Source: a virus
DNA length: 64,000 bases
Reading direction: 5' to 3' (one strand)
IMG/VR virus record: IMGVR_UViG_3300025087_000053
Location: 1 to 64,000 of that record
The notes under the pieces were generated by a model, which was not told where the DNA came from, did no database searches, and was given only the letters and a program-made list of their open reading frames with translations. This document shows positions 5,242-55,554 of the stretch, one piece after another (position 1 is the first letter of the stretch; every line of letters begins with the position of its first letter). A program made the translations under genes and the position numbers.

Positions 5242-5469
5242 TCACCCCTCCTTTGCCGTCAGACGATAGCTCGACGGAAGGCGACGAAAACATCCGTTGA
5301 TTGCGTCAACCAGAACTCCATTGGCAAGCGAGAGAGCCGCACCACTGATCGCCCCACCTCGACGCACAAGCCCGAAAATCTCCGACCCCGGAGGATTGAT
5401 TGTCGAAAGAGTCTTGGCGATCTTCATCGAGGTCTTGTCGACGTGGATCGAAACCGTTGTCGCTAGCAT
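5242..5469 (-). CDS. hypothetical protein (true start downstream of the CRISPR array)
   Basis: MLATTVSIHV start follows the purine-rich leader typical of early genes here; the longer ORF call just runs through the repeats. Confidence 0.55.
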   Translation of the reverse strand: MLATTVSIHVDKTSMKIAKTLSTINPPGSEIFGLVRRGGAISGAALSLANGVLVDAINGCFRRLPSSYRLTAKEG

Positions 5470-5500
5470 TTCTTTTTTCTCTCTTGTTCGGAAGTTTCGG

Positions 5501-5772
5501 GGTCCATCCCCACACACGCAGGGGAGACACGTTGACGCTATTAGGCTGCACATTAGAAGAAGGTCCATCCCCGCACACGCGGGGGAGACTTTCAGGATCT
5601 TTTTTCTGTGCTCTTGGCAGAAGGTCCATCCCCGCACACGCGGGGGAGACGTAGGACGGGGGAAAAATGTTGGCACCGGGGCTGGTCCATCCCCGCACAC
5701 GCGGGGGAGACATCTTTTTTTAGCCTTCGACCACGCTTTTGCCAGGTCCATCCCCGCACACGCGGGGGAGAC
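5501..5772 (-). CRISPR. CRISPR array, 5 x 28-nt repeats (GTCTCCCCCGCGTGTGCGGGGATGGACC) and 4 x 33-nt spacers, type I-E-like repeat
   Basis: repeats at 5501, 5562, 5623, 5684 and 5745 (61-bp period); CCCCGC-GTGT-GCGGGG hairpin; the 5501 copy has 2 substitutions and is the trailer end. Confidence 0.97.
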
Positions 5773-6065
5773 TCTATGACATCGAAGTCATACCCAACTG
5801 TGGCTCCCCTGCCACATGCGGGAATAGCATATCCGTCAAAGAATTTATTCTTTGCTATACATGCTTCTGTAGGCGGAAACTCCGCACGGCTTTCCGAGAG
5901 TATTGCCATACCAGTCTTATTTTATTAAGACTTTCTTGGGCCACTTTCTCAGATTAGGGCGTGGGACCACGCCCAGAATACAAAACTGTATTCTATTCCC
6001 AAATTTATTCTTTATTCAGTTTTTCAAAGAACTTTATCTTGTGGCTATTGCCGCCCCAAGAATGA
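5773..6065 (-). ncRNA. putative tracrRNA/scaffold RNA for Cas12f
   Basis: anti-repeat at 5802-5828 plus several hairpins (TATGAC/GTCATA, GCGGA/TCCGC, AGTCTTA/TAAGACT, GGGCGTG/CACGCCC, AGAATACA/TGTATTCT) between the cas gene and the array. Confidence 0.7.
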
Positions 6066-6070
6066 CATAA

Positions 6071-7498
6071 CTATAGCACATCTTCTATGCTTTTGTCAAC
6101 AGCTTTTTCTTCTTCTCGTCTTGTTGAAGACTCTTCCGTCTCCGACGTACCAGTCTCCTCACATTCATACTCATCATCCTTTAATCCACGGTAAGGAAGT
6201 TTGTTTTTTATGCAATATTCCTTAATCATATTTTCTATGTCTTTTGTAGCAATGTTTTTTGCTGCATTATAATCTGCGTTTGCAGTATATCCACAAGAAA
6301 CACAAACAAATTTTTCTTGTGTCTTGCGATTATCTTCGTGGATCGTTCCACACTCTGAACACCTTTGAGACGTGTATTGAGGATTTATCTTCACAACCTT
6401 AATTCCCACAATCTTTGCCTTATATTCTATCTTTGTTTGAAGATCAAAATATCTCCAATTTTTAAGAAACTTTGGCTTTTTCCCGGCAGTAATGCCAGAA
6501 AGGTTTTCCATTTGAATGGTTTTAGCTCCTTCTTTTATTGCTCGGTTAATCAATGCTTTAGACATTTTGTGGTTCATTGTATCTGCCCAACTACTCTCCC
6601 TGTTTTCGATTGAAAGCGTTGGCTCTAGGGCTTTCTTTCGTCCTCTTCCTTTGCGCTCTTCATAGTTTTTATATCCTCTTTGAATACTTCTTCTTCTTTC
6701 CCGAAATTGGGTTTGATTTTTTCGTATTAAAGAAGCATCCATTGAAAAGTCCCGCTTTTCGGAATTAGAAAAAGCAATAGTCCACGGATGCGCTATCCCC
6801 AAATCAATTCCCATAATAACATTTGAGTCTAGCTCTGTGACAACCGGAGGGTGTTTGCAAGACACAAGAAAGAAAATCTTATTATCTTTTATCTGCAAAT
6901 AGCACTCTCCGGTTCCAAGCCTCCCTTCCCACATACTCTTCATTTCTTTTTTGAGAAAAGCAGGAAGCTTTGAACTTTTTAAAACAAAGCTAATTTTTCT
7001 TTCCTCTTTGGGAACACTCTTTGACCCTGTTGTAAGCCTAACACAAAATTCTTTCTCCTCGGACAAAAAGAGTTCATAACTGCCCTTGGGGAAGGGAACT
7101 GGGCTTGTTCTTTTAAAGAACAAAACAGACTCTTCTTTTTTTACTAAAGTTGCAAACCTGTGTCTCACATAAAAGTCTCCAACTTGTATTTTAAGTCCTT
7201 CCATAATCGGAGTAGAAATCAAGAGATATTTTGGTTTAACCAGAGTATGATAGGTTTTAGACTTAAGACACCCCTCCTTTGAAGATTTATCATACTTGCC
7301 GTTTTTAAATTCAAAAGACGAGAGCAGCTTGTTTTCTATTTCTAAATTCTTTCTATCTGCTAAATAATATTCTACAGCATAAGTGTTTTTTATGTCTGAA
7401 CATTGTTCTGACAGTAAACGAATCTTTTTCCCAAACTCCTGCCAAGAAAGTCCAATCGGCTTATGAATTTGAAATTTCTTAATTGTAACGTTTCCCAT
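6071..7498 (-). CDS. cas12f: CRISPR-associated type V-F nuclease Cas12f (Cas14/C2c10-like)
   Basis: 475 aa; RuvC-I IMGIDLG, RuvC-II IQMENL, CSECG/CVSCG zinc ribbon, RuvC-III NADYNAAKNI; N-terminus (KPIGLSWQEFG) and NWRYFDLQTKIEYKA...PQYTSQRCSECG resemble AsCas12f1 as I recall it; adjacent to the array. Confidence 0.88.
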   Translation of the reverse strand: MGNVTIKKFQIHKPIGLSWQEFGKKIRLLSEQCSDIKNTYAVEYYLADRKNLEIENKLLSSFEFKNGKYDKSSKEGCLKSKTYHTLVKPKYLLISTPIMEGLKIQVGDFYVRHRFATLVKKEESVLFFKRTSPVPFPKGSYELFLSEEKEFCVRLTTGSKSVPKEERKISFVLKSSKLPAFLKKEMKSMWEGRLGTGECYLQIKDNKIFFLVSCKHPPVVTELDSNVIMGIDLGIAHPWTIAFSNSEKRDFSMDASLIRKNQTQFRERRRSIQRGYKNYEERKGRGRKKALEPTLSIENRESSWADTMNHKMSKALINRAIKEGAKTIQMENLSGITAGKKPKFLKNWRYFDLQTKIEYKAKIVGIKVVKINPQYTSQRCSECGTIHEDNRKTQEKFVCVSCGYTANADYNAAKNIATKDIENMIKEYCIKNKLPYRGLKDDEYECEETGTSETEESSTRREEEKAVDKSIEDVL

Positions 7499-8242: not shown

Positions 8243-8572
8243 TTACGTTGTGGACCAAACTCTACCAAAAATCTTCTTTCCGTATCTCTCTTCCATTCTC
8301 AAGAGAGCGCGCTTCATATTCTCGACGCCCTTTGGGTTTGCACTGTGGATGTTGACAGTCGGAGGATTCCAGTCTCGATGAAAAAACATCCACTCGTCCA
8401 TCCAGTTGATAACATCCATACCCGTCTTAAGTCCATCGCCCAAATCATGATCAAAAGAAACCTCTGAAACGTTTTGGAGGGTTCTAAGAAGATAAATCAT
8501 GTCCTCTGCTGTCTTCACCGGCTCCCAGCCAGAAGGACATTGCCTTTCGTCATCTAAAAAAAGCTTCTTCAT
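8243..8572 (-). CDS. cyclic-phosphate-processing receiver-domain protein
   Basis: LFLDDER, SFDHDLG, TGMD and IHSANPxG motifs. Confidence 0.75.
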   Translation of the reverse strand: MKKLFLDDERQCPSGWEPVKTAEDMIYLLRTLQNVSEVSFDHDLGDGLKTGMDVINWMDEWMFFHRDWNPPTVNIHSANPKGVENMKRALLRMEERYGKKIFGRVWSTT

Positions 8573-15087: not shown

Positions 15088-15134
15088 TTGTATTTTTTAT
15101 ACAAAAGCGAGTTCGACTCCACTATTTATAATAA

Positions 15135-15210
15135 CGCCCTGGGCAGGGCTCGAACCTGCATTATTCCAATTACGGTACACACGGGTAGAAGCCGTGGCCG
15201 TTACCAGGGC
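15135..15210 (-). tRNA. non-canonical tRNA-Arg(UCU)-like gene lacking a normal D-arm
   Basis: acceptor GCCCTGG/CCAGGGC+G, anticodon arm CACGG-CTTCTAC-CCGTG, T-arm GCAGG-TTCGAGC-CCTGC; 7-nt connector instead of a D-arm and a 20-nt variable region. Confidence 0.65.
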
Positions 15211-15225
15211 AATAGGAGAACACCA

Positions 15226-16616
15226 TCCCGTTCGAGATTTAAACCACGAAATCATCAGCCGACATGAGTTTAAGCTCTCTCCTCTTATTAAAAATAATGA
15301 ATTTACAAAAAAGTCAACATATTTCACTTCGTGTGCTATATTTATAATGTGTCGAAACGTCTTTCTACAACTTCTGAAAAAAGCCTCCCTATAACTATCC
15401 TCAGTCAACGTATTCGACTCGTTCCAAATAACATCCAAACAACCTTTTTCGAACGTTGTGCTGGTGCATCTCGCTTCGTCTACAACTGGGGATTGGACCG
15501 TTGGAAAACTCAATACGAAGCCGAAGGAAAGCCCTCTTGGATCAGTCTTAACACCGAGCTGAATGCCTGCAAAAACACCGAATTTCCTTGGATGGCAAAA
15601 TTGCCGTGGGCTGTTGCTGCAACGGCGTTGTCCAACCTCGGCAATGCTTTCTCCAACTTCTTTCGCCGTATCAAATCTGGCCAAAAGCCCGGCTATCCCC
15701 GCTTCAAGTCGAAGAAACAAAGCAAAATGTCCTTCGCCGTTGAAGGTCGAGCCCTTCGCTTTGACGGCCGAAGAGTTAAGATTCCCAAGCTTGGTTGGGT
15801 CCGCACTCGACAAGAGATAAGATTTCCTGGTAAAATCCTGTCCGCTCACTTTACGAAACATGCCGGTCATTGGTACGTCTCGGTCCAAATTCAAGTCTCC
15901 GACTCCTGGTCCTATCCCCATCGCTGCGAAACCCAAGAAGCGGTTGGAGTGGATCTCGGGCTCCGAGACCTTGCCGTGCTTTCTACGGGAGAACGGGTCG
16001 AGGCTCCACGCATTCTGCGTGCTCATGAAACCAGACTGCGACGATTCAACAAGGAAATGTCTCGTCGCGTCATAGGAGGAAGAAATTGGCAGAAGACTAA
16101 AACGAAGCTTGGACGGCTGCATGAACGGATTTCCAACATCCGCAAAGACGTAACGCATAAGCTTACCGCTCGGCTGGTCCGAGACTTTCGTCGGATTGGA
16201 ATCGAGGACTTGAACGTCAAGGGGATGATGGCAAATCATCATCTTGCCAAGTCGATTGCGGATGCTGCCTTGTCGGAAATCAGGCGTCAGCTTATGTATA
16301 AAGCTCCGCTTGCCGGCAGTGAAATCATTGTTGCCGACCGCTGGTTCCCTTCTTCCAAGCTGTGTTCCGACTGTGGAACAAGACGAGAAGGACCGTTGCC
16401 TTTGTCCATCCGAGAATGGGTTTGTGAGGTTTGTGGGGTTGTCCACGACCGAGACATCAACGCAGCCATTAATCTTAGAACCGCCGCCCTGGCGGGGATA
16501 GCCTGCTGTCAAGAAAGCTCTGGTTCTGGCCCTACGGCCAGAACGAAACTTCCTCATGGGCAGGAATTGAGCAACTGTGTTAACTAATGGGTTCATGGTT
16601 TAAGTCTCAAATGGGA
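15226..16616 (+). mobile_element. TnpB-only IS element, copy A (IS607/IS1341-like, no transposase)
   Basis: left end TCCCGTTCGAGATTTAAACC and right end GGTTTAAGTCTCAAATGGGA are inverted copies; homologous to copies B-E. Confidence 0.85.
15349..16587 (+). CDS. tnpB: RNA-guided endonuclease TnpB
   Basis: N-terminal HTH (RFVYNWGL), VGVDLG, IGIEDL, CSDC/CEVC, HDRDINAAINL; probable GTG start at 15349. Confidence 0.93.
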   Translation: MSKRLSTTSEKSLPITILSQRIRLVPNNIQTTFFERCAGASRFVYNWGLDRWKTQYEAEGKPSWISLNTELNACKNTEFPWMAKLPWAVAATALSNLGNAFSNFFRRIKSGQKPGYPRFKSKKQSKMSFAVEGRALRFDGRRVKIPKLGWVRTRQEIRFPGKILSAHFTKHAGHWYVSVQIQVSDSWSYPHRCETQEAVGVDLGLRDLAVLSTGERVEAPRILRAHETRLRRFNKEMSRRVIGGRNWQKTKTKLGRLHERISNIRKDVTHKLTARLVRDFRRIGIEDLNVKGMMANHHLAKSIADAALSEIRRQLMYKAPLAGSEIIVADRWFPSSKLCSDCGTRREGPLPLSIREWVCEVCGVVHDRDINAAINLRTAALAGIACCQESSGSGPTARTKLPHGQELSNCVN

Positions 16617-24135: not shown

Positions 24136-25743
24136 CTATTTTTTAACGAGAACACAACTTAGCGTAATTAACATGGAGGCGGCGCTAAGAGCGTTGAGAA
24201 GCGCAAACACTTCTACTTTCGTAGGATCAAGAATCCCGGCCCCAATCATATCAGGTACAAAACCTCTTGTCAAGAAATTATACCCTTTCCATAAACTTTT
24301 GTTTTTATTTCTTTTATTTCTCTTTAGCACCTCTGAAGAAAGAGAATCAAAGCTAACGCCAGAATTGCCACAAAGCTTTCTGAATGGAGAAGATAGGGCA
24401 TTTTTAATGATTTGAGCACCATGTTTTTGTTCCTCTGTTTTAAAATCGCACATCTTTAAAGATTCGGATTGAAGCAGCAAGGGGATGCCTCCACCAGGAA
24501 GATACCCATGTTCTAGAGAAGACTTAACCGCCTCTAAAGAGTCCTGAACTCTGTGCGTTTTTTCTATTGCTTCTGCTTCTGTATACCCTCCAACACGTAT
24601 AACCGCAGCTCCAGAAGAAAGTCTAGAAATTCTTCCTTCAAGAATCTTTTGTTTTATTTCGCTCTCTTCTCGGCGAAGCTCTTCTTTTAATTCTTCTGTC
24701 TTGGCAAGTATCTTTGCTTGCTCTCCTCCTCCACCAACGAAAGTAGAAACATTTTTATAAATCTCTACTGATTTGACTCGACCAAGATGTACCATTCTGG
24801 TTTTTTCTAAAGTCAGCATCGCACTATCATAAGGAGAAATAAACTCTGCTCCAGTGACAAGAGCCAAATCTTTAAGTATCTCTTTTCTTTCTTCACCAAA
24901 AGCGGGAGGACTTACCACCGCAATTTTCATTGTGTTGTTGATTGCGTTTAATATAACAGCCGATAAAGCCTGACCCTCCACCTCTTCCGCGATAATTACC
25001 AAAGGCTTTCCTTCTTTTGCTGCCATGGTCAGAATACCCATTATTTGCTCAACAAAAGAAACTCTCTGATCTGTTACCAACACCAATGCGTCGTTATATC
25101 TTACGGAATTTGTTCTATGGTCGTTTACAAGCGCCGAAGAAACATAGCCTGAGTTAAATCGAAATCCGTCGATATATTCAACAACGGTATCAAAAGACTT
25201 CGACATTTCAACCACAATTGAGCCATCTTTCCCTATGTTTGAAACAACATCCTCTATTAGATTCCCAATAACTTCGTCGCCATTTGCAGAAATTGTCGCA
25301 ATACTTTTAATTTGTTCTGTTGAGTCAACCTTGAGAGAACTCTTTTTCAATTCTTCTACAACTTTTTCTACAGCTTTTTCCATTCCCACTTTAAGTTCGT
25401 TGGGATTGTCGCCAAGATCAAGATATTTCAAAGAAGAGAAAAAGATATTCGCGGCCAACACAATACTTGTCGTAGTTCCATCACCTGCGTTGATGTTTGT
25501 GGAAATTGCAGCTTGCTTTAATATTTGTACTATGGCATTTATAATCGGGTCATCTGATTCAACAAACTTCGCAACAGTTACACCGTCTTTCGTTTGGACG
25601 GGCGAACCATCTCCGCTCTTTAAAAGAACCGTTTTACCAGCAGGACCCATTGTTGACGATACAGGAAAATAAATAAGTTCTATCGCCTTTAGAACTTTTT
25701 CTCTAAGCTCACGAGAATCCATTTCATGAAAATTCATTCTCAA
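24136..25743 (-). CDS. groEL: chaperonin GroEL-like
   Basis: TMGPAG, TKDGVTVAK, AGDGTTT, ATISANGD, PGGG and GILDP motifs. Confidence 0.93.
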   Translation of the reverse strand: MRMNFHEMDSRELREKVLKAIELIYFPVSSTMGPAGKTVLLKSGDGSPVQTKDGVTVAKFVESDDPIINAIVQILKQAAISTNINAGDGTTTSIVLAANIFFSSLKYLDLGDNPNELKVGMEKAVEKVVEELKKSSLKVDSTEQIKSIATISANGDEVIGNLIEDVVSNIGKDGSIVVEMSKSFDTVVEYIDGFRFNSGYVSSALVNDHRTNSVRYNDALVLVTDQRVSFVEQIMGILTMAAKEGKPLVIIAEEVEGQALSAVILNAINNTMKIAVVSPPAFGEERKEILKDLALVTGAEFISPYDSAMLTLEKTRMVHLGRVKSVEIYKNVSTFVGGGGEQAKILAKTEELKEELRREESEIKQKILEGRISRLSSGAAVIRVGGYTEAEAIEKTHRVQDSLEAVKSSLEHGYLPGGGIPLLLQSESLKMCDFKTEEQKHGAQIIKNALSSPFRKLCGNSGVSFDSLSSEVLKRNKRNKNKSLWKGYNFLTRGFVPDMIGAGILDPTKVEVFALLNALSAASMLITLSCVLVKK

Positions 25744-26480: not shown

Positions 26481-27869
26481 CGCATTCGAGATTTGAACCA
26501 TGAACTCCTTAGTTAACATGGGTTTAAATCTTCTCCTCCTGTTAAAAAGAATGAATTTGAAAAAAAGTCAACATATTTCACTTCGTGTGCTATAATTATA
26601 GTGTGCCGAAACATCATTCTACAACTTCCGAAAATAACCTCCCCACAACTATCCTCGGCCAACGCATTCGGCTGGATCTTAATAACGTCCAAACATCTTT
26701 TTTTGAACGATGCGCCGGTGCTTCCCGTTTCGTCTACAACTGGGGATTGGACCGCTGGAAAGCTCAGTACGAGGCTGGTGGAAAACCGTCGTGGGTTAGT
26801 CTTAGCTCTGAACTGAATGCCTGTAAAACTACCGAATTTCCCTGGATGATCAAGCTGCCGTGGGCTGTTCCCTCTACGGCGCTGTCCAACCTCGGCAATG
26901 CTTTCTCCAACTTCTTTCGTCGTGTTAAATCTGGCCAAAAGCCCGGTTATCCCCGTTTCAAGTCGAAGAAACGGAACAAAGCAGCCTTTGCCATCGAGGG
27001 CCGAGCCCTTCGTTTTGACGGCCGAAGAGTTAAAATTCCCAAACTCGGCTGGGTCCGCACCCGACAAGAGATAAGATTCCCCGGCAAAATCTTGTCCGCT
27101 CACTTTACGAAACATGCCGGTCATTGGTACGTCTCGATTCAAGTTCAAGTCTCCGACTCCTGGTCTTATCCTCACCGCTGCGAAACCCAAGAAACGGTTG
27201 GAGTGGACCTCGGACTTCGAGACCTTGCCGTGTTTTCCACTGGAGAACGGGTCGAGGCTCCACGCATTCTGCGTGCTCATGAAACCCGACTGCGACGACT
27301 CAACAAGGAAATGTCTCGTCGCGTCATAGGAGGAAGAAATTGGCAGAAGACTAAAACGAAGCTTAGTCGGCTGCATGAACGGATTTCCAACATCCGCAAA
27401 GACGTAACGCATAAGCTTACCGCTCGGCTGGTCCGAGACTTCCGTCGGATTGGAATCGAGGACTTGAACGTCAAGGGAATGATGGCAAATCACCATCTTA
27501 CCAAGTCGATTGCGGATGCTTCCCTGTCGGAAATTAGGCGTCAGCTCACGTATAAGGCTCCGCTTGCCGGCAGCGAAATCGTTGTTGCAGACCGCTGGTT
27601 CCCCTCTTCCAAGCTGTGTTCCGACTGCAGAACAAGACGAGAAGAGCCGTTGCCTTTGTCTGTCCGAGAATGGGTTTGCGAAGCCTGCGGGGTTGTCCAC
27701 GACCGAGACATCAACGCAGCCATTAATCTTAGAACCGCCGCCCTGGCGGGGATAGCCTGCTGTCAAGAAAGCTCTGGTTCTGGCCTTACGGCCAGAACGA
27801 AACTCTCTCATGGGCAGGAATCGAGCAGCCGTGTTAACTAAGAAGTTCATAGTTTAAGTCTCGAAGGGG
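26481..27869 (+). mobile_element. TnpB-only IS element, copy B, with 37-bp imperfect terminal inverted repeats
   Basis: 26485-26521 versus 27829-27865 match 32/37 inverted; AT at both flanks; removal restores TAAGGGGCTAGAC-ATG between clpP and the amidase. Confidence 0.9.
26603..27841 (+). CDS. tnpB: RNA-guided endonuclease TnpB
   Basis: close paralogue of copy A with intact D-E-D RuvC triad and zinc ribbon. Confidence 0.93.
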   Translation: MPKHHSTTSENNLPTTILGQRIRLDLNNVQTSFFERCAGASRFVYNWGLDRWKAQYEAGGKPSWVSLSSELNACKTTEFPWMIKLPWAVPSTALSNLGNAFSNFFRRVKSGQKPGYPRFKSKKRNKAAFAIEGRALRFDGRRVKIPKLGWVRTRQEIRFPGKILSAHFTKHAGHWYVSIQVQVSDSWSYPHRCETQETVGVDLGLRDLAVFSTGERVEAPRILRAHETRLRRLNKEMSRRVIGGRNWQKTKTKLSRLHERISNIRKDVTHKLTARLVRDFRRIGIEDLNVKGMMANHHLTKSIADASLSEIRRQLTYKAPLAGSEIVVADRWFPSSKLCSDCRTRREEPLPLSVREWVCEACGVVHDRDINAAINLRTAALAGIACCQESSGSGLTARTKLSHGQESSSRVN

Positions 27870-30318: not shown

Positions 30319-32400
30319 TTATAGCTTTCTAAATGCTTCATTTATCTTCTTGTTCGTAGAAAAACCCCACTTCTCATCTTTGGTAACGACGCCAACATAA
30401 GCTGAGTTTTCAACAAGAGGATAATAGTCTTTCACATTCCAGCACTTAATTTTGTTCTCTTCACCCGTATTATCAACCACCGTAAGAACAGCATAATCTT
30501 TCTTGTTTGCTAAGGTTTGCTTAAACTCTACGCTCTTTAATACAAACCAAACATATTTGCCCACTTCCCATTCGCTCACCGGAACGGCGCCAAGAGACTT
30601 TAAAGCTTTTACGTCTTTAGGTGAAACAATTTGGTCAACAGGATAAACTCCTGTTAACTGAGAGCGATAAATAAGTCTTTCTTTTTCCGCGAAGGAGCCT
30701 TCTGGAGAATACAATTTAATATTTTCTTCAAAGTCTTCTTGGTCTTTAGGACGAATAACCGCCACACATGACCAGAAATGCTTGTCGCCAGTAAACCTTT
30801 CGTCCATAAGACTATCTAATGCGCCGCTTCTTGTCAAGACATCTAGATACTTTTTATTTAGCTTCTTGCCCCAAATGTCTTCTTTAAAAAGCACATCTTC
30901 AATCTTATTGTAGGGACGACAATAGGAGATTTGTTCTACAGCGGTCTTGCCCATCCCCAGCAAAGAGAACAGAGGTTGAATAAGTTCTTTTTTGTTGTCT
31001 GGAGACACATCCCAATCATATAAAGAGGACTTATTTATGTCCACAGAAGCCATAGTGAACCCAATAGATTTAGCATCAGATATCGCTTTTGCTTTTGTTT
31101 TTTCTGGCTCGCTGTTGAGGAAGGCGGCAACCCATTCGCTTTGATAATAAGTAAAAAGCCAAGCACACTGATAAGAAAGGATGGAATATCCGCAACTGTG
31201 GGACAAATTAAATCCATAATTGTTGAATAATTCCAAGGACTTCCATAATTCTTCTAAAGCATTACCTTCAATCCCCTTTTCAAGACCACCCTCGACAAAC
31301 TTCTTATAAATCTTCTCTTTCTTTTCTGCGTTGTTCCCTATGAGACCCTTTTTTGTCAAGAGTTTTCTAAGAGAGTTTCCTTCCATTAGAGAAACGTCTT
31401 TCCCTATTGCAACAGCCAACTTAGCAATTTGCTCTTGATAAATAACAAAGCCATAGGTACTTTTTAAAACAGGCTCCACACAAGGATGAAGGTAGGTAAC
31501 GGTTTCTGGATGCCTTTTCGCTTTTAAATACTTCTTGTCTATGTTCGAACCCAGAGGTCCCGGCCGATATATCGAAGTTACAGCAGACAAATCCTCAATA
31601 GATGTGGGTTTAACTTTCACGCAAAAGGATTGCGCGCCGTCGTTAGAAAATTGGAAAATACCTAAATTTAAATTCTTCTTCTTGTGGAAAACAGTTTCCC
31701 ATACTTTCTGATCGTCGAAGTTGATTACGTCGGGGTGCAAGTTTCTATTATAAAACTCTATAATTTCTTTTATCCCACAAGAGAGTTTTCTTTTGTGAAG
31801 AATATGTTTGATAGTATCTTCTATAATTGTTAAAGTTTGCAATCCTAAAATATCAAATTTAATAAACCCCAAAGGTTCTAGATGCCGTACCGCTTGCCCT
31901 TCAGACCAAGGACTTTGGAAAGAACCCTTGGCGCTAATAAGAGGCATTTTTTCATGTAAGTTATCAGACCAAACAAGTCCCGCCGCATGTTGTCCAATAG
32001 ACTTCACCATGCCTTGTAAATTTTCTATGTGAGATGCTACAGAGGGATATTTTCTTAAAAAGGCTTGGAAAGAAGGACTATATGCCTTAACTTCTTCATA
32101 AGTAGGTTCGTAAACTCCGGCAACTTGCTCATGATCCTGTTTGGCTTTTGGTAAAGCCTCGTCGACCATTTTTGTTGTTACTTCATTAACTTCTTGAAAA
32201 GATACATTATAAAATTTTGATATGTCCTTAACAAGAGACTTCAAGTGAAATGTGCCATAGTTTGAAATAAGAGTTGCGCTCTTTTCTCCCCACTCTTCAA
32301 TAAGAAAAGTCTTAAACTCTGCTGCACGAGAAAAATCGCAGTTGTGAACAATAACAGTCTTATAACTCTCTTTAAAAGAGTGATGTTTAATGATTTCCAT
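30319..32400 (-). CDS. dnaE: DNA polymerase III alpha, C-terminal half preceded by a 20-aa C-intein
   Basis: MEIIK...VIVHN|CDF; HAAG, KFDILGL, GIFQF, SIYRPGP, YQEQ and YGFNLSH motifs; own GAGG SD. Confidence 0.9.
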   Translation of the reverse strand: MEIIKHHSFKESYKTVIVHNCDFSRAAEFKTFLIEEWGEKSATLISNYGTFHLKSLVKDISKFYNVSFQEVNEVTTKMVDEALPKAKQDHEQVAGVYEPTYEEVKAYSPSFQAFLRKYPSVASHIENLQGMVKSIGQHAAGLVWSDNLHEKMPLISAKGSFQSPWSEGQAVRHLEPLGFIKFDILGLQTLTIIEDTIKHILHKRKLSCGIKEIIEFYNRNLHPDVINFDDQKVWETVFHKKKNLNLGIFQFSNDGAQSFCVKVKPTSIEDLSAVTSIYRPGPLGSNIDKKYLKAKRHPETVTYLHPCVEPVLKSTYGFVIYQEQIAKLAVAIGKDVSLMEGNSLRKLLTKKGLIGNNAEKKEKIYKKFVEGGLEKGIEGNALEELWKSLELFNNYGFNLSHSCGYSILSYQCAWLFTYYQSEWVAAFLNSEPEKTKAKAISDAKSIGFTMASVDINKSSLYDWDVSPDNKKELIQPLFSLLGMGKTAVEQISYCRPYNKIEDVLFKEDIWGKKLNKKYLDVLTRSGALDSLMDERFTGDKHFWSCVAVIRPKDQEDFEENIKLYSPEGSFAEKERLIYRSQLTGVYPVDQIVSPKDVKALKSLGAVPVSEWEVGKYVWFVLKSVEFKQTLANKKDYAVLTVVDNTGEENKIKCWNVKDYYPLVENSAYVGVVTKDEKWGFSTNKKINEAFRKL

Positions 32401-34267
32401 GTTTCCTCTTGTTGTCTATCTCAAGTACAAATCTCTTTCTTTCTTCGGTAATAGTATTAAAAACTTCTATTACATCCAATGGAACTATTTGAAAACTTTT
32501 TGTTTCTCCCAATAAAGAAATGTCGGTTAAAGCTATTCTTTCTTTTTTTTGTTTTGACATCTTTTCTATTTCCAGCACCACTACTTCCCCGCCAATAGAT
32601 TTCAAAGAATCACCAATTTTTAATTCTTTTGTCTTAGTAACCCTGTCACTTGAAAGAATAAACTTGTGCGTTTCGCCCGCAATAATAATACCCAAAATAT
32701 CTTCTTCTACTTGTTGTACTACTATTGAAAATACTTTTTCTTTCGGCCGCACATTTCTACTAAAAACAGCAGAAACCACGGAGTTCTCTCCAAACTCGTT
32801 TATAACAACATCTCCTATTAGAACATCTCGAAGTTTTTTATATCCCCCAGAAACTCGTACTTCGTGCCCGCTCCAAAGACAATCTATGTCGGGACTCGAA
32901 CCTTCGGATAAAAATCTTTCAAACAAAAGACCATATTTAATAGGGTCGACATGTGTTATGTTCAACACATACGCAATTAAAGAACCTCCAGCAGAGCCCC
33001 GCCCTGGTCCAGTCAGACAAAAATTCCTGCTTTTGTCTATTATCTTTTTCATTGCCAGAAAATATTTACAATATCCTCGGTCTTTTACAACCCTAAGCTC
33101 ATGTTTCAGTCTGTCTACATATTCTTTCTTTTCATACAGCCCCTTGGCCTTTAGACCAGCCACTGCCCTCCTTGCTAAAGCCCCTTCTTCAGTTTGGCCA
33201 GTGGGGACAACAGAGGAAGGTAGTTTATAGCTTCTGTCCATATCGACATTCTCTATCCTGTTCATAGCAATGTCATATGTGTTATCGAGACTCTTTTCTA
33301 TCGTGTCATCTTCATAAAAAGAATTATGTTTAAGAGAATATTTTTTATAATCTCTCCACATTTCTTCTGCAGATTTTGGATACAACTCATAACCGATTTC
33401 TTCTACGGTTTCTGGTAGCTTTGCCTGCTCGCTGTCTTTAGAGTTTAACCAACCCAACTTCTTGTAAAGAAATCTATCTTTCCACAACTCGGGCCTTGGG
33501 TAGTGTGCGTCAGCAGTAGAAACCAGCTTAAACCCCATCTCAACTGAAAGCTGTATTATTAGTTGGTTTAAATCATGCTGTTCAACAAAGTCATTCCACT
33601 GTAATTCTCCGTACCATCTATCTTCAAAGATATCCAACATAGCTTGCGTTGTCTTGCGCATCTCTAAAAGAATATAGTCTGTTCCCTTTTCGTAATTATC
33701 AAAAAAGTTAGAAGAATAAACTCCGCCCACACAAGCACTTGTTGCAATAATGCCTTTGTTATATGAACGAAGCATATCGTAATCTATTCTGGGGTATCTA
33801 TAGAAGTTTTCTCTCTTGTAGGAGTTGTAGACGAGTTGAAATAGATTTTTAAGCCCGTCTTGATTTTGAGCCAAAAGAAGTATATGGCTTCTTTTATTAA
33901 TTTCTGTCTTCTTTGTCCTTGAAAACCTCTTTAGATCGTCTTCAATAACCGTTGCGTTTATCTCTTCTTCTTTCTTCTTTTTTAATTCTTTGTTCTCTTT
34001 GGCCGTTTCGTATGCCGTTCTCCACTTCTTAAAAGAAGGAATAATATACGCCTCAATTCCATATATTGGTTTTACTATCTTCCCCTCTTTTTTCATTTCT
34101 TCTGCGGCAAATAGTTGGTAGGCCATGGAGTTCATGTTACCATGGTTCGTGATGGCGAGGGCTTCACCCCCCGTCTCGTGGACTCTTTCCATAAATTGTT
34201 TGGGATAACCGAATCCGTCAAACACCGAGAACGTATCGTGGCAATGAAGATTTACAAATTTTACCAT
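32387..34267 (-). CDS. dnaE: DNA polymerase III alpha, N-terminal half (PHP plus palm) followed by a 164-aa N-intein
   Basis: VNLHCH, ITNHG, TADAHY, GPGRGSAGGSL, LLFERFL, PDID|CLWSGH. Confidence 0.9.
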   Translation of the reverse strand: MVKFVNLHCHDTFSVFDGFGYPKQFMERVHETGGEALAITNHGNMNSMAYQLFAAEEMKKEGKIVKPIYGIEAYIIPSFKKWRTAYETAKENKELKKKKEEEINATVIEDDLKRFSRTKKTEINKRSHILLLAQNQDGLKNLFQLVYNSYKRENFYRYPRIDYDMLRSYNKGIIATSACVGGVYSSNFFDNYEKGTDYILLEMRKTTQAMLDIFEDRWYGELQWNDFVEQHDLNQLIIQLSVEMGFKLVSTADAHYPRPELWKDRFLYKKLGWLNSKDSEQAKLPETVEEIGYELYPKSAEEMWRDYKKYSLKHNSFYEDDTIEKSLDNTYDIAMNRIENVDMDRSYKLPSSVVPTGQTEEGALARRAVAGLKAKGLYEKKEYVDRLKHELRVVKDRGYCKYFLAMKKIIDKSRNFCLTGPGRGSAGGSLIAYVLNITHVDPIKYGLLFERFLSEGSSPDIDCLWSGHEVRVSGGYKKLRDVLIGDVVINEFGENSVVSAVFSRNVRPKEKVFSIVVQQVEEDILGIIIAGETHKFILSSDRVTKTKELKIGDSLKSIGGEVVVLEIEKMSKQKKERIALTDISLLGETKSFQIVPLDVIEVFNTITEERKRFVLEIDNKRKHGNH

Positions 34268-38198: not shown

Positions 38199-38222
38199 TT
38201 CTTTTTACCTTTCTGCTTTCTA

Positions 38223-38308
38223 CGGAAGGTAGAGGACTCGAACCTCTGCAACCTTTCGGTTGGCCGCCGCTTTCCAAGCGGGCACGATAGCCGCTCCGTC
38301 AACCTTCC
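38223..38308 (-). tRNA. tRNA-Ser(GGA), CCA not encoded
   Basis: GGAAGGT/ACCTTCC acceptor, CCGC-TTGGAAA-GCGG, long variable arm CAACC-GAAA-GGTTG, AGAGG-TTCGAGT-CCTCT, G discriminator. Confidence 0.9.
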
Positions 38309-38314
38309 ACAAGC

Positions 38315-53644: not shown

Positions 53645-53986
53645 TTATCCCTCAAACATCATCATAACTTTTTCCAACGGCAAAGGAATATAAACTATTT
53701 GTCCAATTGTTAATTGGCAGTCTACTGGAACTTGGTTAAACCAAGCAATCAACCACCATAAAGTAACATCTCCATAGTGTTTATATGCAAGTTTATAATA
53801 CTTGTCCCCGGCTCTCCATGTATGATTAACAACATCAAGTTCTTTTATTTGTTCTTTTGTCGGATATTTCAGTTGAAGAGTTTTGTATTGTAAAATATGC
53901 TTAAGCCCCTTTTTCTTAAGCTCCGAAGCATACATTTCATTTTTGTTGATAACAGGATTTAACCTGCGATAACGAGAGATGGGCAT
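53645..53986 (-). CDS. baseplate wedge protein (LysM/gp53-like)
   Basis: GDKYYKLAYKHYGDVTLWWLIAWFN. Confidence 0.8.
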   Translation of the reverse strand: MPISRYRRLNPVINKNEMYASELKKKGLKHILQYKTLQLKYPTKEQIKELDVVNHTWRAGDKYYKLAYKHYGDVTLWWLIAWFNQVPVDCQLTIGQIVYIPLPLEKVMMMFEG

Positions 53987-55554
53987 TATTTAACAACCTC
54001 TTTATACGATTCTTTGATTAATCTTCTTAGAAAGGATTCTTTTATTTCTTCTTTCTTGTCCAAATCCCATTTCCTGACGATTCCTGGTGTTTCTTTATTA
54101 TAGTGGTCGGGGTTATGTTGATAAAGAATCTTCACGACCTCAACATGGCCGTTTGCCGAAGCCCATCGGATGGCAGCGTTGTCATCGGCCGAGGGAACAA
54201 CCCTCTTGTCGGAAAGAAGAATCTTCACGACCTCAACATGGCCGTTTGCCGAAGCCACTCGGATGGCAAGGTTGTTACCGGCCGTTGGATCAACCCTCTT
54301 GTCGGAAAGAAGAATCTTCACGACCTCAACCTGGCCGTATTCCGAAGCCCATTGGAAGGCATAGTTGTCATCGGCCGTTGGATCAACCCTTTTGTCGGAA
54401 AGAAGAATCTTCACGACCTCAACATGGCCTTTTGCCGAAGCCCATCGGATGGCAAGGTTGTTACTTGTTCTTACGTTCGCACCCTTCCGAATTAAATCTT
54501 TTACATATTCGAGGTTGGGAGTTTCTTCTTGTTTTACCGCATCTTTTAGCTTGTTGTTTAGCAAACCTTGCCGTTGAATCTGTTTTTCATATTTTAAAAA
54601 CTCTTCGGGGATACCACCCTCCGACATCTCCGCCATCATTTCGATGGAAGGATTATACCCGGCTCGAACAATCTTCATTAGCTTTCGGAGTTCGTCGACA
54701 TTATACGCTTCCGCTTCATCTCTATTGAAAGCCGCAGCAACAAACTTTAGCCAATCGTCATATGTTACTTCCTTCATGTTCTTCTGCATCAAGGAAACAT
54801 ATTTGTTAAATCGGTCTTGACCTCCGATCTCTTCTATTACTTCTCTCGGGGTTTGAAGAAGATTTCCCGTAAATATGCCGCCAGGATATTCGTTCTCTAC
54901 TGTCGTTACGGTTGTTTCGATACCGTCCCCTTGGTCGACAACAGCAAAGTTAATTCTTGAAAACCTGTTACTTATGACGTCTTCCAAAGGAACTGTCTTG
55001 TTTATGACGTTAAAAAAGACGACCCCATCGTTAATCGTATATTGATAGAAATAGTTCTGTCCTTGGGCTGCAATACACCATGGGGTTCCTCGACCCCAAT
55101 AACAAGAGCCCTCCCTCGACAGCAGACGAATCATGATGTATTCATCGTCCTCATAAAGAGTTTGGAAATGTTCCCCTTCGCCACTTTCGGCTGCTTTATA
55201 GGCGGTTTTCTTCTTCTCTTTCCCCTTCGATCTCTCGCTCCGTTGCACGGTTTCGTAATAGTTGATTGCGTCGAAGACTCTTTCAGCCGTTTCGTATTGA
55301 TTAATGTCTTTCTTTTCCAGCCGAGGACCAATCTGATCGAACTTAAGAAATGCGTCCGCAACAAGCTCTTTGCTCTCGTTGCCTTGAAGAGTTCTTTTTA
55401 AAGCCCATTCCAAATACTTCTGTTTGCCCGTCGGATCTTTCGAGGCAAAGAAGTCGATTAGCTCTGTTTGCTCGGGAAGCTTTTCTTTCAGAGAGGAAAT
55501 TTTATCTTCAAGCAAAAGAACATCTTTAACTTCTTCCAAAATTACATATCTCAT
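53986..55554 (-). CDS. protein with TPWCIA domain and C-terminal ankyrin repeats
   Basis: SCYWGRGTPWCIA; four 93-bp ankyrin units nearly identical at DNA level to those of 17035..17787. Confidence 0.8.
   Translation of the reverse strand: MRYVILEEVKDVLLLEDKISSLKEKLPEQTELIDFFASKDPTGKQKYLEWALKRTLQGNESKELVADAFLKFDQIGPRLEKKDINQYETAERVFDAINYYETVQRSERSKGKEKKKTAYKAAESGEGEHFQTLYEDDEYIMIRLLSREGSCYWGRGTPWCIAAQGQNYFYQYTINDGVVFFNVINKTVPLEDVISNRFSRINFAVVDQGDGIETTVTTVENEYPGGIFTGNLLQTPREVIEEIGGQDRFNKYVSLMQKNMKEVTYDDWLKFVAAAFNRDEAEAYNVDELRKLMKIVRAGYNPSIEMMAEMSEGGIPEEFLKYEKQIQRQGLLNNKLKDAVKQEETPNLEYVKDLIRKGANVRTSNNLAIRWASAKGHVEVVKILLSDKRVDPTADDNYAFQWASEYGQVEVVKILLSDKRVDPTAGNNLAIRVASANGHVEVVKILLSDKRVVPSADDNAAIRWASANGHVEVVKILYQHNPDHYNKETPGIVRKWDLDKKEEIKESFLRRLIKESYKEVVK

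Follow-up and report, generated by a model that had tools for sequence, protein, structure and literature searches.

A locus composed of a gene for a Cas12f-type nuclease and a CRISPR array was analyzed in a 64,000-nucleotide (nt) stretch of viral DNA. This stretch, hereinafter referred to as the window, corresponds to positions 1 to 64,000 of IMGVR_UViG_3300025087_000053, a 75.5-kb linear IMG/VR virus record. On the minus strand, which carries nearly all genes of the window, the locus consisted of a cas12f1-like gene, an intergenic region of 298 nt between the stop codon and the first repeat, and an array of five repeats and four spacers (Table 1). The gene was present in a single copy in the 75.5-kb contig, and the array was the only one in it. 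The original prediction for this DNA had described a 475-aa RuvC protein with three catalytic acids and a zinc ribbon, followed on the same strand by about 300 nt of structured sequence and an array of five repeats, and these features were confirmed in the present analysis.

Characteristics of the Cas12f protein

The RuvC residues D232, E331, and D409 and the zinc-ribbon cysteines C380, C383, C399, and C402 were all invariant in an alignment with 18 homologues. Among the Pfam domains, Cas12f1-like_TNB was identified in the 475-aa protein with 84 bits and OrfB_IS605 matched only weakly, under its cut-off. HTH_OrfB_IS605, which was found in both TnpB proteins encoded in the window, was absent. 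The top-scoring NCBIfam model was that of the broad subfamily guided_TnpB (169 bits). In a search of all solved structures, the best matches were the AsCas12f entries 8j3r, 8j12, 7wju, and 8dzj, with E-values of 3e-60 to 3e-58 over residues 4 to 427. They were followed by SpCas12f1, OsCas12f, and CnCas12f1, and ISDra2 TnpB scored only an E-value of 6e-6. A Foldseek search with an AlphaFold model (mean predicted local distance difference test score, 78.6) agreed with this ranking, ranks 1 to 12 all being Cas12f1 structures. The Cas12 "hacker" (Cas12p), a phage-encoded miniature Cas12 that was weakly similar to the model in structure (Foldseek rank 29), was ruled out as an identity of the protein, as it represents a different family of 500–700 aa with a GTN protospacer-adjacent motif (PAM).

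An acidic C-terminal extension of about 50 aa had also been predicted and was indeed present. Homology to the relatives stopped near residue 427, leaving 45–48 residues, 15 of which were D or E. In the 118 best homologues, the residues past the end of homology numbered eight in the median and 22 at most, and the acidic tail was without counterpart among them. It was modelled at low confidence, with one predicted helix (residues 457 to 474). With its 475 aa, the protein is no smaller than known nucleases of this kind.

A scan of metagenome contigs yielded 80 loci encoding relatives with 31–51% identity. About 50 of these loci harbored an array within a few hundred nt of the gene, upstream or downstream of it and on the gene's strand. 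In a quick maximum-likelihood tree that included the two TnpB genes of the window, the phage Cas12f branched inside this array-associated family, on a long branch of 2.19 substitutions per site. It grouped loosely with L031, L041, L096, L098/L100, and L040/L071/L078/L099, and a very long branch parted this group from the two TnpB genes, with which the phage protein shared just 24–25% identity.

The position of the protein inside the Cas12f1 family and far from the TnpBs of the window, as obtained from both the tree and the profile searches, supports its assignment to the CRISPR-associated Cas12f1 family and not to the transposon TnpBs. The best NCBIfam score of guided_TnpB and the weak OrfB_IS605 match would fit a transposon TnpB acting with an omega-RNA next to a coincidental array. 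This explanation was nevertheless regarded as highly improbable, because the OrfB_IS605 match lies below the cut-off, the HTH_OrfB_IS605 domain is missing, and the gene is single-copy and distant from the true TnpBs of the window. Moreover, the E-values of the Cas12f1 structures surpassed that of TnpB by over 50 orders of magnitude, and a putative anti-repeat and an array, rather than an element end, come past the scaffold of the putative trans-activating CRISPR RNA (tracrRNA), although ends of an insertion sequence were not explicitly searched for.

tracrRNA scaffold and putative anti-repeat

The region from 6063 to 5712 folded with a z-score of -6.8 relative to shuffled sequences, and its minimum free energy (MFE) fold showed the same helices as the scaffold model of the family. 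In the relatives, the common RNA located 3' of the stop codon was composed of a G+C hairpin, a long-range helix around a variable stem, a further hairpin, and a segment complementary to the repeat. RNAalifold identified 14 consensus pairs in the relatives, nine of which were accompanied by compensatory changes. A covariance model (R1) was built from the sequences of 35 relatives, excluding the phage sequence, and searched against both strands of the window (128 kb) with E-values up to 10. The single match was located between the gene and the array (26.7 bits, E-value of 3.8e-4); it contained no non-standard pairs, and two helix pairs were changed on both sides compared with the consensus. R1 also matched 19 further relatives, always on the strand of the gene, and nothing was found by it at the TnpB loci of the window. 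For AsCas12f1, a tracrRNA of 169 nt that is encoded between gene and array and includes an anti-repeat has been experimentally defined (PMC8548392). The order of cas12f, tracrRNA, and array, put forward earlier as the V-F layout, is supported by this precedent together with the R1 match. A predicted promoter overlapping the end of the open reading frame (ORF) would start the RNA near position 6063.

Between the scaffold and the array, a 28-nt element was detected that can pair with positions 1 to 26 of the repeat at -36.4 kcal/mol, or at -39.2 kcal/mol with the terminal repeat. No other site outside the array reached such a pairing energy in a scan of the 75.5-kb record. Nine of ten relatives examined have a segment that can pair with almost the entire repeat and that adjoins the array or precedes it by a few tens of nt; the element of the phage sits at this position and pairs with the I-E repeat of its own array. 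It has lost the hairpin of the repeat itself (-9.3 versus -16.1 kcal/mol), so that duplex formation would be favored. In addition, it is spaced 55–56 nt from repeat 1 instead of 61 nt, and its flanks complement the flanks of the repeat. The spacing, the lost hairpin, the flanks, and the position shared with the relatives speak for a working anti-repeat, whereas by its sequence the element could equally be a decayed sixth repeat, the repeat being palindromic. The linker that separates the element from repeat 1 makes pairing in cis possible. The putative anti-repeat may have originated as a copy of the repeat, and new anti-repeats could easily be gained in this way.

Type I-E repeat array

Four of the five repeats were identical, and the terminal one contained two C-to-T changes, its hairpin being kept through G:U pairs. 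The array exhibited the features of type I-E arrays, including a repeat of 28–29 nt, G+C-rich palindromic arms, spacers of 32–33 nt, and a unit of 61 nt. In a scan of genome contigs, the 23-nt core of the repeat was present in 72 copies in an array of Sphingomonas silueang and in single copies in Streptomyces arrays. The Sphingomonas repeat was identical to the phage repeat at 27 of 28 positions, with an equal 61-nt unit and an equal orientation, and its array is located directly downstream of genes encoding Cas5, CasE (Cas6e), Cas1, and I-E-type Cas2 domains, which bears out the earlier recognition of the phage repeat as a hallmark of type I-E. In PLSDB, I-E arrays on plasmids of Streptomyces, Thermus, and Bosea also aligned with the phage array in register. 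Judged by its sequence, the phage repeat is a genuine type I-E repeat. The G+C content of the spacers (39–61%) was like that of the phage (41%) and unlike that of a high-GC host array; as the G+C content of cas12f (36%) is also near that of the phage, the array is not simply a fresh piece of the array of a high-GC host.

Most repeats of the relatives were about 32 nt long, in units of 65–71 nt, and none was I-E-like among the roughly 50 array-bearing loci. Since the phage repeat (28 nt, in a 61-nt unit, and unrelated in sequence) departs from the family-typical repeat of about 32 nt in a unit of 65–68 nt, the locus is referred to as a V-F1 variant and not as a standard member. Two further members of its subclade, L031 and L099, carried non-canonical repeats of 37 nt and 30 nt, respectively, with matching anti-repeats in the spacer region between gene and array, and repeat switching may therefore be recurrent in this subclade. 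These two repeats may resemble class 1 repeats. A gene for a phage-type integrase adjoins the L099 locus.

A different function of the array was also considered, namely that of a phage mini-array for the I-E Cascade of the host. In that case, Cas6e would process the transcript and Cascade-Cas3 would be redirected at competitors, with Cas12f and the tracrRNA merely adjacent and their own array lost. Phage arrays with host-like repeats and without cas genes are documented in a survey of huge phages (PMC7162821). Such a function would be in accordance with a repeat that is essentially identical to working I-E repeats, a unit length exactly as in I-E arrays, and a Cas6e-type hairpin (-16.1 kcal/mol) that is kept by G:U pairs despite both changes in the last repeat. 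It appears unlikely, however, given that the array occupies the family's own array place, on the same strand and directly past the tracrRNA scaffold. Two further points argue against it: the upstream element can pair with the repeat, its own hairpin is lost, and it lies out of the 61-nt register; and two other members of the subclade join non-canonical repeats with matching anti-repeats.

Because the Cas6e-type hairpin is perfectly kept, use by a host Cascade is possible either alone or in addition to use by Cas12f. One array could thus serve two classes, with spacers written by host I-E Cas1-Cas2, a transcript feeding both the phage Cas12f and, through Cas6e, the host Cascade, and an anti-repeat that arose from a copy of the palindromic I-E repeat. 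We regard this combined use as distinctly unlikely. If it were true, a palindromic class 1 repeat would offer a ready-made route by which a tracrRNA-dependent effector could switch its repeat type.

Adaptation genes and spacer targets

No match to hidden Markov models of Cas1, Cas2 (two models), Cas4, or Cas6e was obtained in the whole 75.5-kb record, which agrees with the absence of cas1, cas2, cas4, and cas6 from the window as originally predicted. As the record represents only about 38% of the genome, this absence holds for the record and need not hold for the whole phage. A check of spacer targets, which had been suggested together with the prediction, was less successful: no protospacer of the four spacers was found in the INPHARED phage collection, in PLSDB, where only the repeats were matched and these to I-E arrays, in IMG/VR (exact 22-mers from the PAM-proximal end), or in the phage's own 75.5 kb. 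When genome contigs were scanned with the repeat core for a host, only Sphingomonas silueang and single Streptomyces repeat variants were obtained, both of which are unlikely hosts because they are high-GC organisms in contrast to the 41% G+C phage. No IMG/VR contig with the repeat or with a close relative of the phage Cas12f was found, and a search with a neighboring gene likewise yielded no kin.

The small size of the array (four spacers), the lack of detected targets, the strong divergence and odd tail of the protein, and the failure to find a related phage in which conservation could be seen are what would be expected of a decaying remnant, in which recombination placed part of a host I-E array beside the Cas12f gene and the locus no longer functions as a CRISPR system. 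This possibility was considered improbable, since the reading frame is intact with all catalytic and zinc-binding residues present, four repeats are identical, all scaffold helices are intact, and the composition of the gene is adapted to the phage.

Proposed mode of action of the module

The locus is best interpreted as a phage-borne, V-F1-like CRISPR-Cas12f interference module without adaptation genes of its own, probably served in trans by type I-E Cas1-Cas2, and we assign a probability of about 0.6 to this interpretation. Most likely, a type I-E repeat/anti-repeat module has replaced the original one in a V-F1-type system, which retained its protein-binding scaffold. The minus strand encodes a Cas12f1 homologue that is, judging from its residues, catalytically intact. 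The RNA starting near 6063 would contain the tracrRNA scaffold of the family and end in the anti-repeat, and the four-spacer array would follow. The anti-repeat would pair with the repeat of each CRISPR RNA (crRNA), in cis for spacer 1 and in trans for the others. Cas12f would then bind the duplex and the scaffold, and its RuvC site would cut DNA that matches the spacer beside a 5' PAM. The likely targets would be competing mobile elements. The inter-phage weapon and the new compact editor of the original prediction are candidate roles.

Units of 61 nt are what the I-E integrase produces. From this length and the lack of adaptation genes in the record, we infer that I-E Cas1-Cas2 acts in trans. 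The integrase, presumably that of the host, would insert the spacers into the array, which would be the most economical reason for the presence of an I-E repeat. This suggests that the CRISPR system of the phage depends on host machinery to acquire its guides.

Several observations weigh against this interpretation. The phage protein sits on a very long branch, and conservation is poor in its guide-binding N-terminal half. The R1 match is modest, with a rough E-value, and covers model positions 12 to 87 only, and the promoter and the RNA ends are predictions only. As the I-E repeat is palindromic, one repeat can pair with another at -36.5 kcal/mol, almost as strongly as with the putative anti-repeat, and a hand alignment of this element with the repeat gave about 19 identities in each of the direct and inverted orientations. 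Complementarity is consequently no proof of co-evolution with a tracrRNA. No protospacer was found by which the PAM and the function could be checked. The co-resident host I-E system is an assumption, and host Cas6e, if present, would cut the repeats and could thereby remove the part needed by Cas12f.

If the system works as proposed, it would show that a class 1 repeat can replace the entire repeat/anti-repeat module of a tracrRNA-dependent class 2 effector with retention of the protein-binding scaffold, and by what route a repeat can give rise to a tracrRNA anew. It would also provide a concrete example of an adaptation-less type V system that stays "adaptive" by matching a co-resident class 1 integrase, and the dependence of a phage on the CRISPR adaptation machinery of its host could be tested on it. 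Further, Cas12f1 would have to tolerate a very different, G+C-rich duplex of repeat and anti-repeat, which matters for guide engineering.

Genomic context of the locus

The completeness of the 75.5-kb record was estimated at 38% of the phage genome, which corresponds to a genome of approximately 200 kb; the designation of the phage as "jumbo" is thus an extrapolation. Genes for a tail sheath, ribonucleotide reductase, a split DnaE, a GroEL-like chaperonin, and an ankyrin protein were encoded in the window. The tail sheath was only about 28% identical to those of a Microcystis phage and an uncultured 484-kb phage. The alpha subunit of DNA polymerase III was encoded by two overlapping ORFs on the minus strand (30319–34267 in the window). 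The 626-aa ORF contained the PHP domain and the beginning of the polymerase domain, and the 693-aa ORF contained the rest of the polymerase domain, the finger domain, and the HHH motif.

A gene for a protein with a cREC_REC domain was located about 750 nt upstream of cas12f on the same strand. On the other side of the locus, an ORF of 75 aa begins directly past the last repeat, with a purine-rich stretch before it, and may be co-transcribed with the array. Long ORFs spanning 5242–5779 on both strands were regarded as artefacts of the repeats.

The two TnpB proteins of the window were about 90% identical to each other and encoded on the plus strand, opposite to almost all other genes. Each TnpB gene was wholly antisense to a minus-strand ORF without a Pfam match: the gene at 15331–16587 to an ORF of 499 aa (15097–16596), and that at 26585–27841 to an ORF of 445 aa (26513–27850).

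Table 1. Positions of the features of the cas12f locus, of two related loci, and of other genes in the window. Positions refer to the window unless preceded by the name of a related locus.
Feature	Position	Strand	Remarks
cas12f1-like gene, 475 aa	6071–7498	-	Stop codon 6071–6073
RuvC catalytic codons	D232, 6803–6805; E331, 6506–6508; D409, 6272–6274	-	Read directly in sequence
Acidic C-terminal extension, residues 431–475 (codons)	6074–6208	-	
Predicted sigma-70-like promoter, overlapping the ORF end	6070–6099	-	11/12 positions, extended -10; consensus match only
tracrRNA scaffold (5' G+C hairpin and long-range helix enclosing a variable stem-loop)	5890–5974	-	R1, MFE fold
Putative anti-repeat (3' part of the putative tracrRNA); alternatively, decayed sixth repeat	5801–5828	-	Pairing with repeat
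Linker from anti-repeat to repeat 1, with a small hairpin	5773–5800	-	Fold
CRISPR array, five 28-nt repeats and four 33-nt spacers	5501–5772	-	
Repeats	5772–5745, 5711–5684, 5650–5623, 5589–5562, 5528–5501 (terminal repeat)	-	Exact 61-nt period
Spacers, 33 nt each	5744–5712, 5683–5651, 5622–5590, 5561–5529	-	
L031 locus, 37-nt repeats	L031:4788–5560		
L099 locus, 30-nt repeats	L099:3074–4212		
75-aa ORF	5242–5469	-	No family match
109-aa protein, cREC_REC (cyclic-phosphate processing receiver) domain	8243–8572	-	E-value of 2e-26
TnpB gene, 418 aa	15331–16587	+	HTH_OrfB_IS605, OrfB_IS605, and TNB domains
GroEL-like chaperonin	24136–25743	-	
TnpB gene, 418 aa	26585–27841	+	HTH_OrfB_IS605, OrfB_IS605, and TNB domains
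tRNA-Ser(GGA) gene	38222–38309	-	
Ankyrin-repeat protein	53986–55554	-	

Comparison with known systems

The degree of novelty claimed in the original prediction was too high, because phage-borne V-F variants, a Cas12r with I-E-like repeats, and the idea of adaptation shared between V-F1 and type I systems have already been published. The phage locus shares with the V-F1 Cas12f1 systems (AsCas12f1 of Acidibacillus sulfuroxidans, OsCas12f, and SpCas12f1) the protein family and, along the entire length, the fold, the order of gene, long tracrRNA, and array (PMC8548392), a homologous scaffold, and the lack of adaptation genes. It differs from them in its 28-nt I-E repeat with a 61-nt unit, compared with about 32 nt and a 65–68-nt unit in the family, and in a putative anti-repeat that is changed to fit the I-E repeat and located 27 nt from the array. 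The phage protein is also about 32–35% identical to these proteins, lies on a long branch, and has an extra acidic tail of 45 aa and a phage context.

The Cas12r-CRISPR of Thermus Lalka phages comprises a tracrRNA-independent protein of 564 aa and an array with degenerate repeats that starts 15 bp past the gene, and its authors proposed that the I-E module of the host acquires the spacers and that the system takes part in conflicts between mobile elements (10.64898/2026.04.20.719267). Both systems represent small phage-encoded type V effectors without adaptation genes, and the Cas12r repeats (29 bp, with spacers of 32–33 bp) are likewise similar to host I-E repeats. The locus described here is set apart from Cas12r by its V-F1 tracrRNA scaffold, its near-perfect I-E repeats, and the 298 nt that separate the gene from the array.

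In bacterial genomes, V-F1 (C2c10) co-occurs with type I-B, and shared adaptation has been proposed from the similarity of their PAMs (10.1101/2024.04.09.587696). The present interpretation resembles that proposal in that the array of an adaptation-less V-F1 system would receive its spacers in trans from a class 1 Cas1-Cas2. In the present case, however, a phage carries the system, the class 1 type concerned is I-E, and the evidence consists of the repeat sequence and the unit length.

V-F/V-U variants without Cas1, Cas2, and Cas4 are described for huge phages in the survey cited above, where repeats matching those of the host and targeting of competing phages are also reported (PMC7162821). 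To that extent, the locus described here is of the same kind, as a phage-borne V-F-type effector without Cas1, Cas2, and Cas4. In the passages of the survey that were consulted, no class 1 repeat was found to be described together with a tracrRNA-dependent class 2 effector. What is new in the present locus is that a tracrRNA-dependent Cas12f1 is combined with a repeat that is genuinely of type I-E and with a putative anti-repeat matching it.

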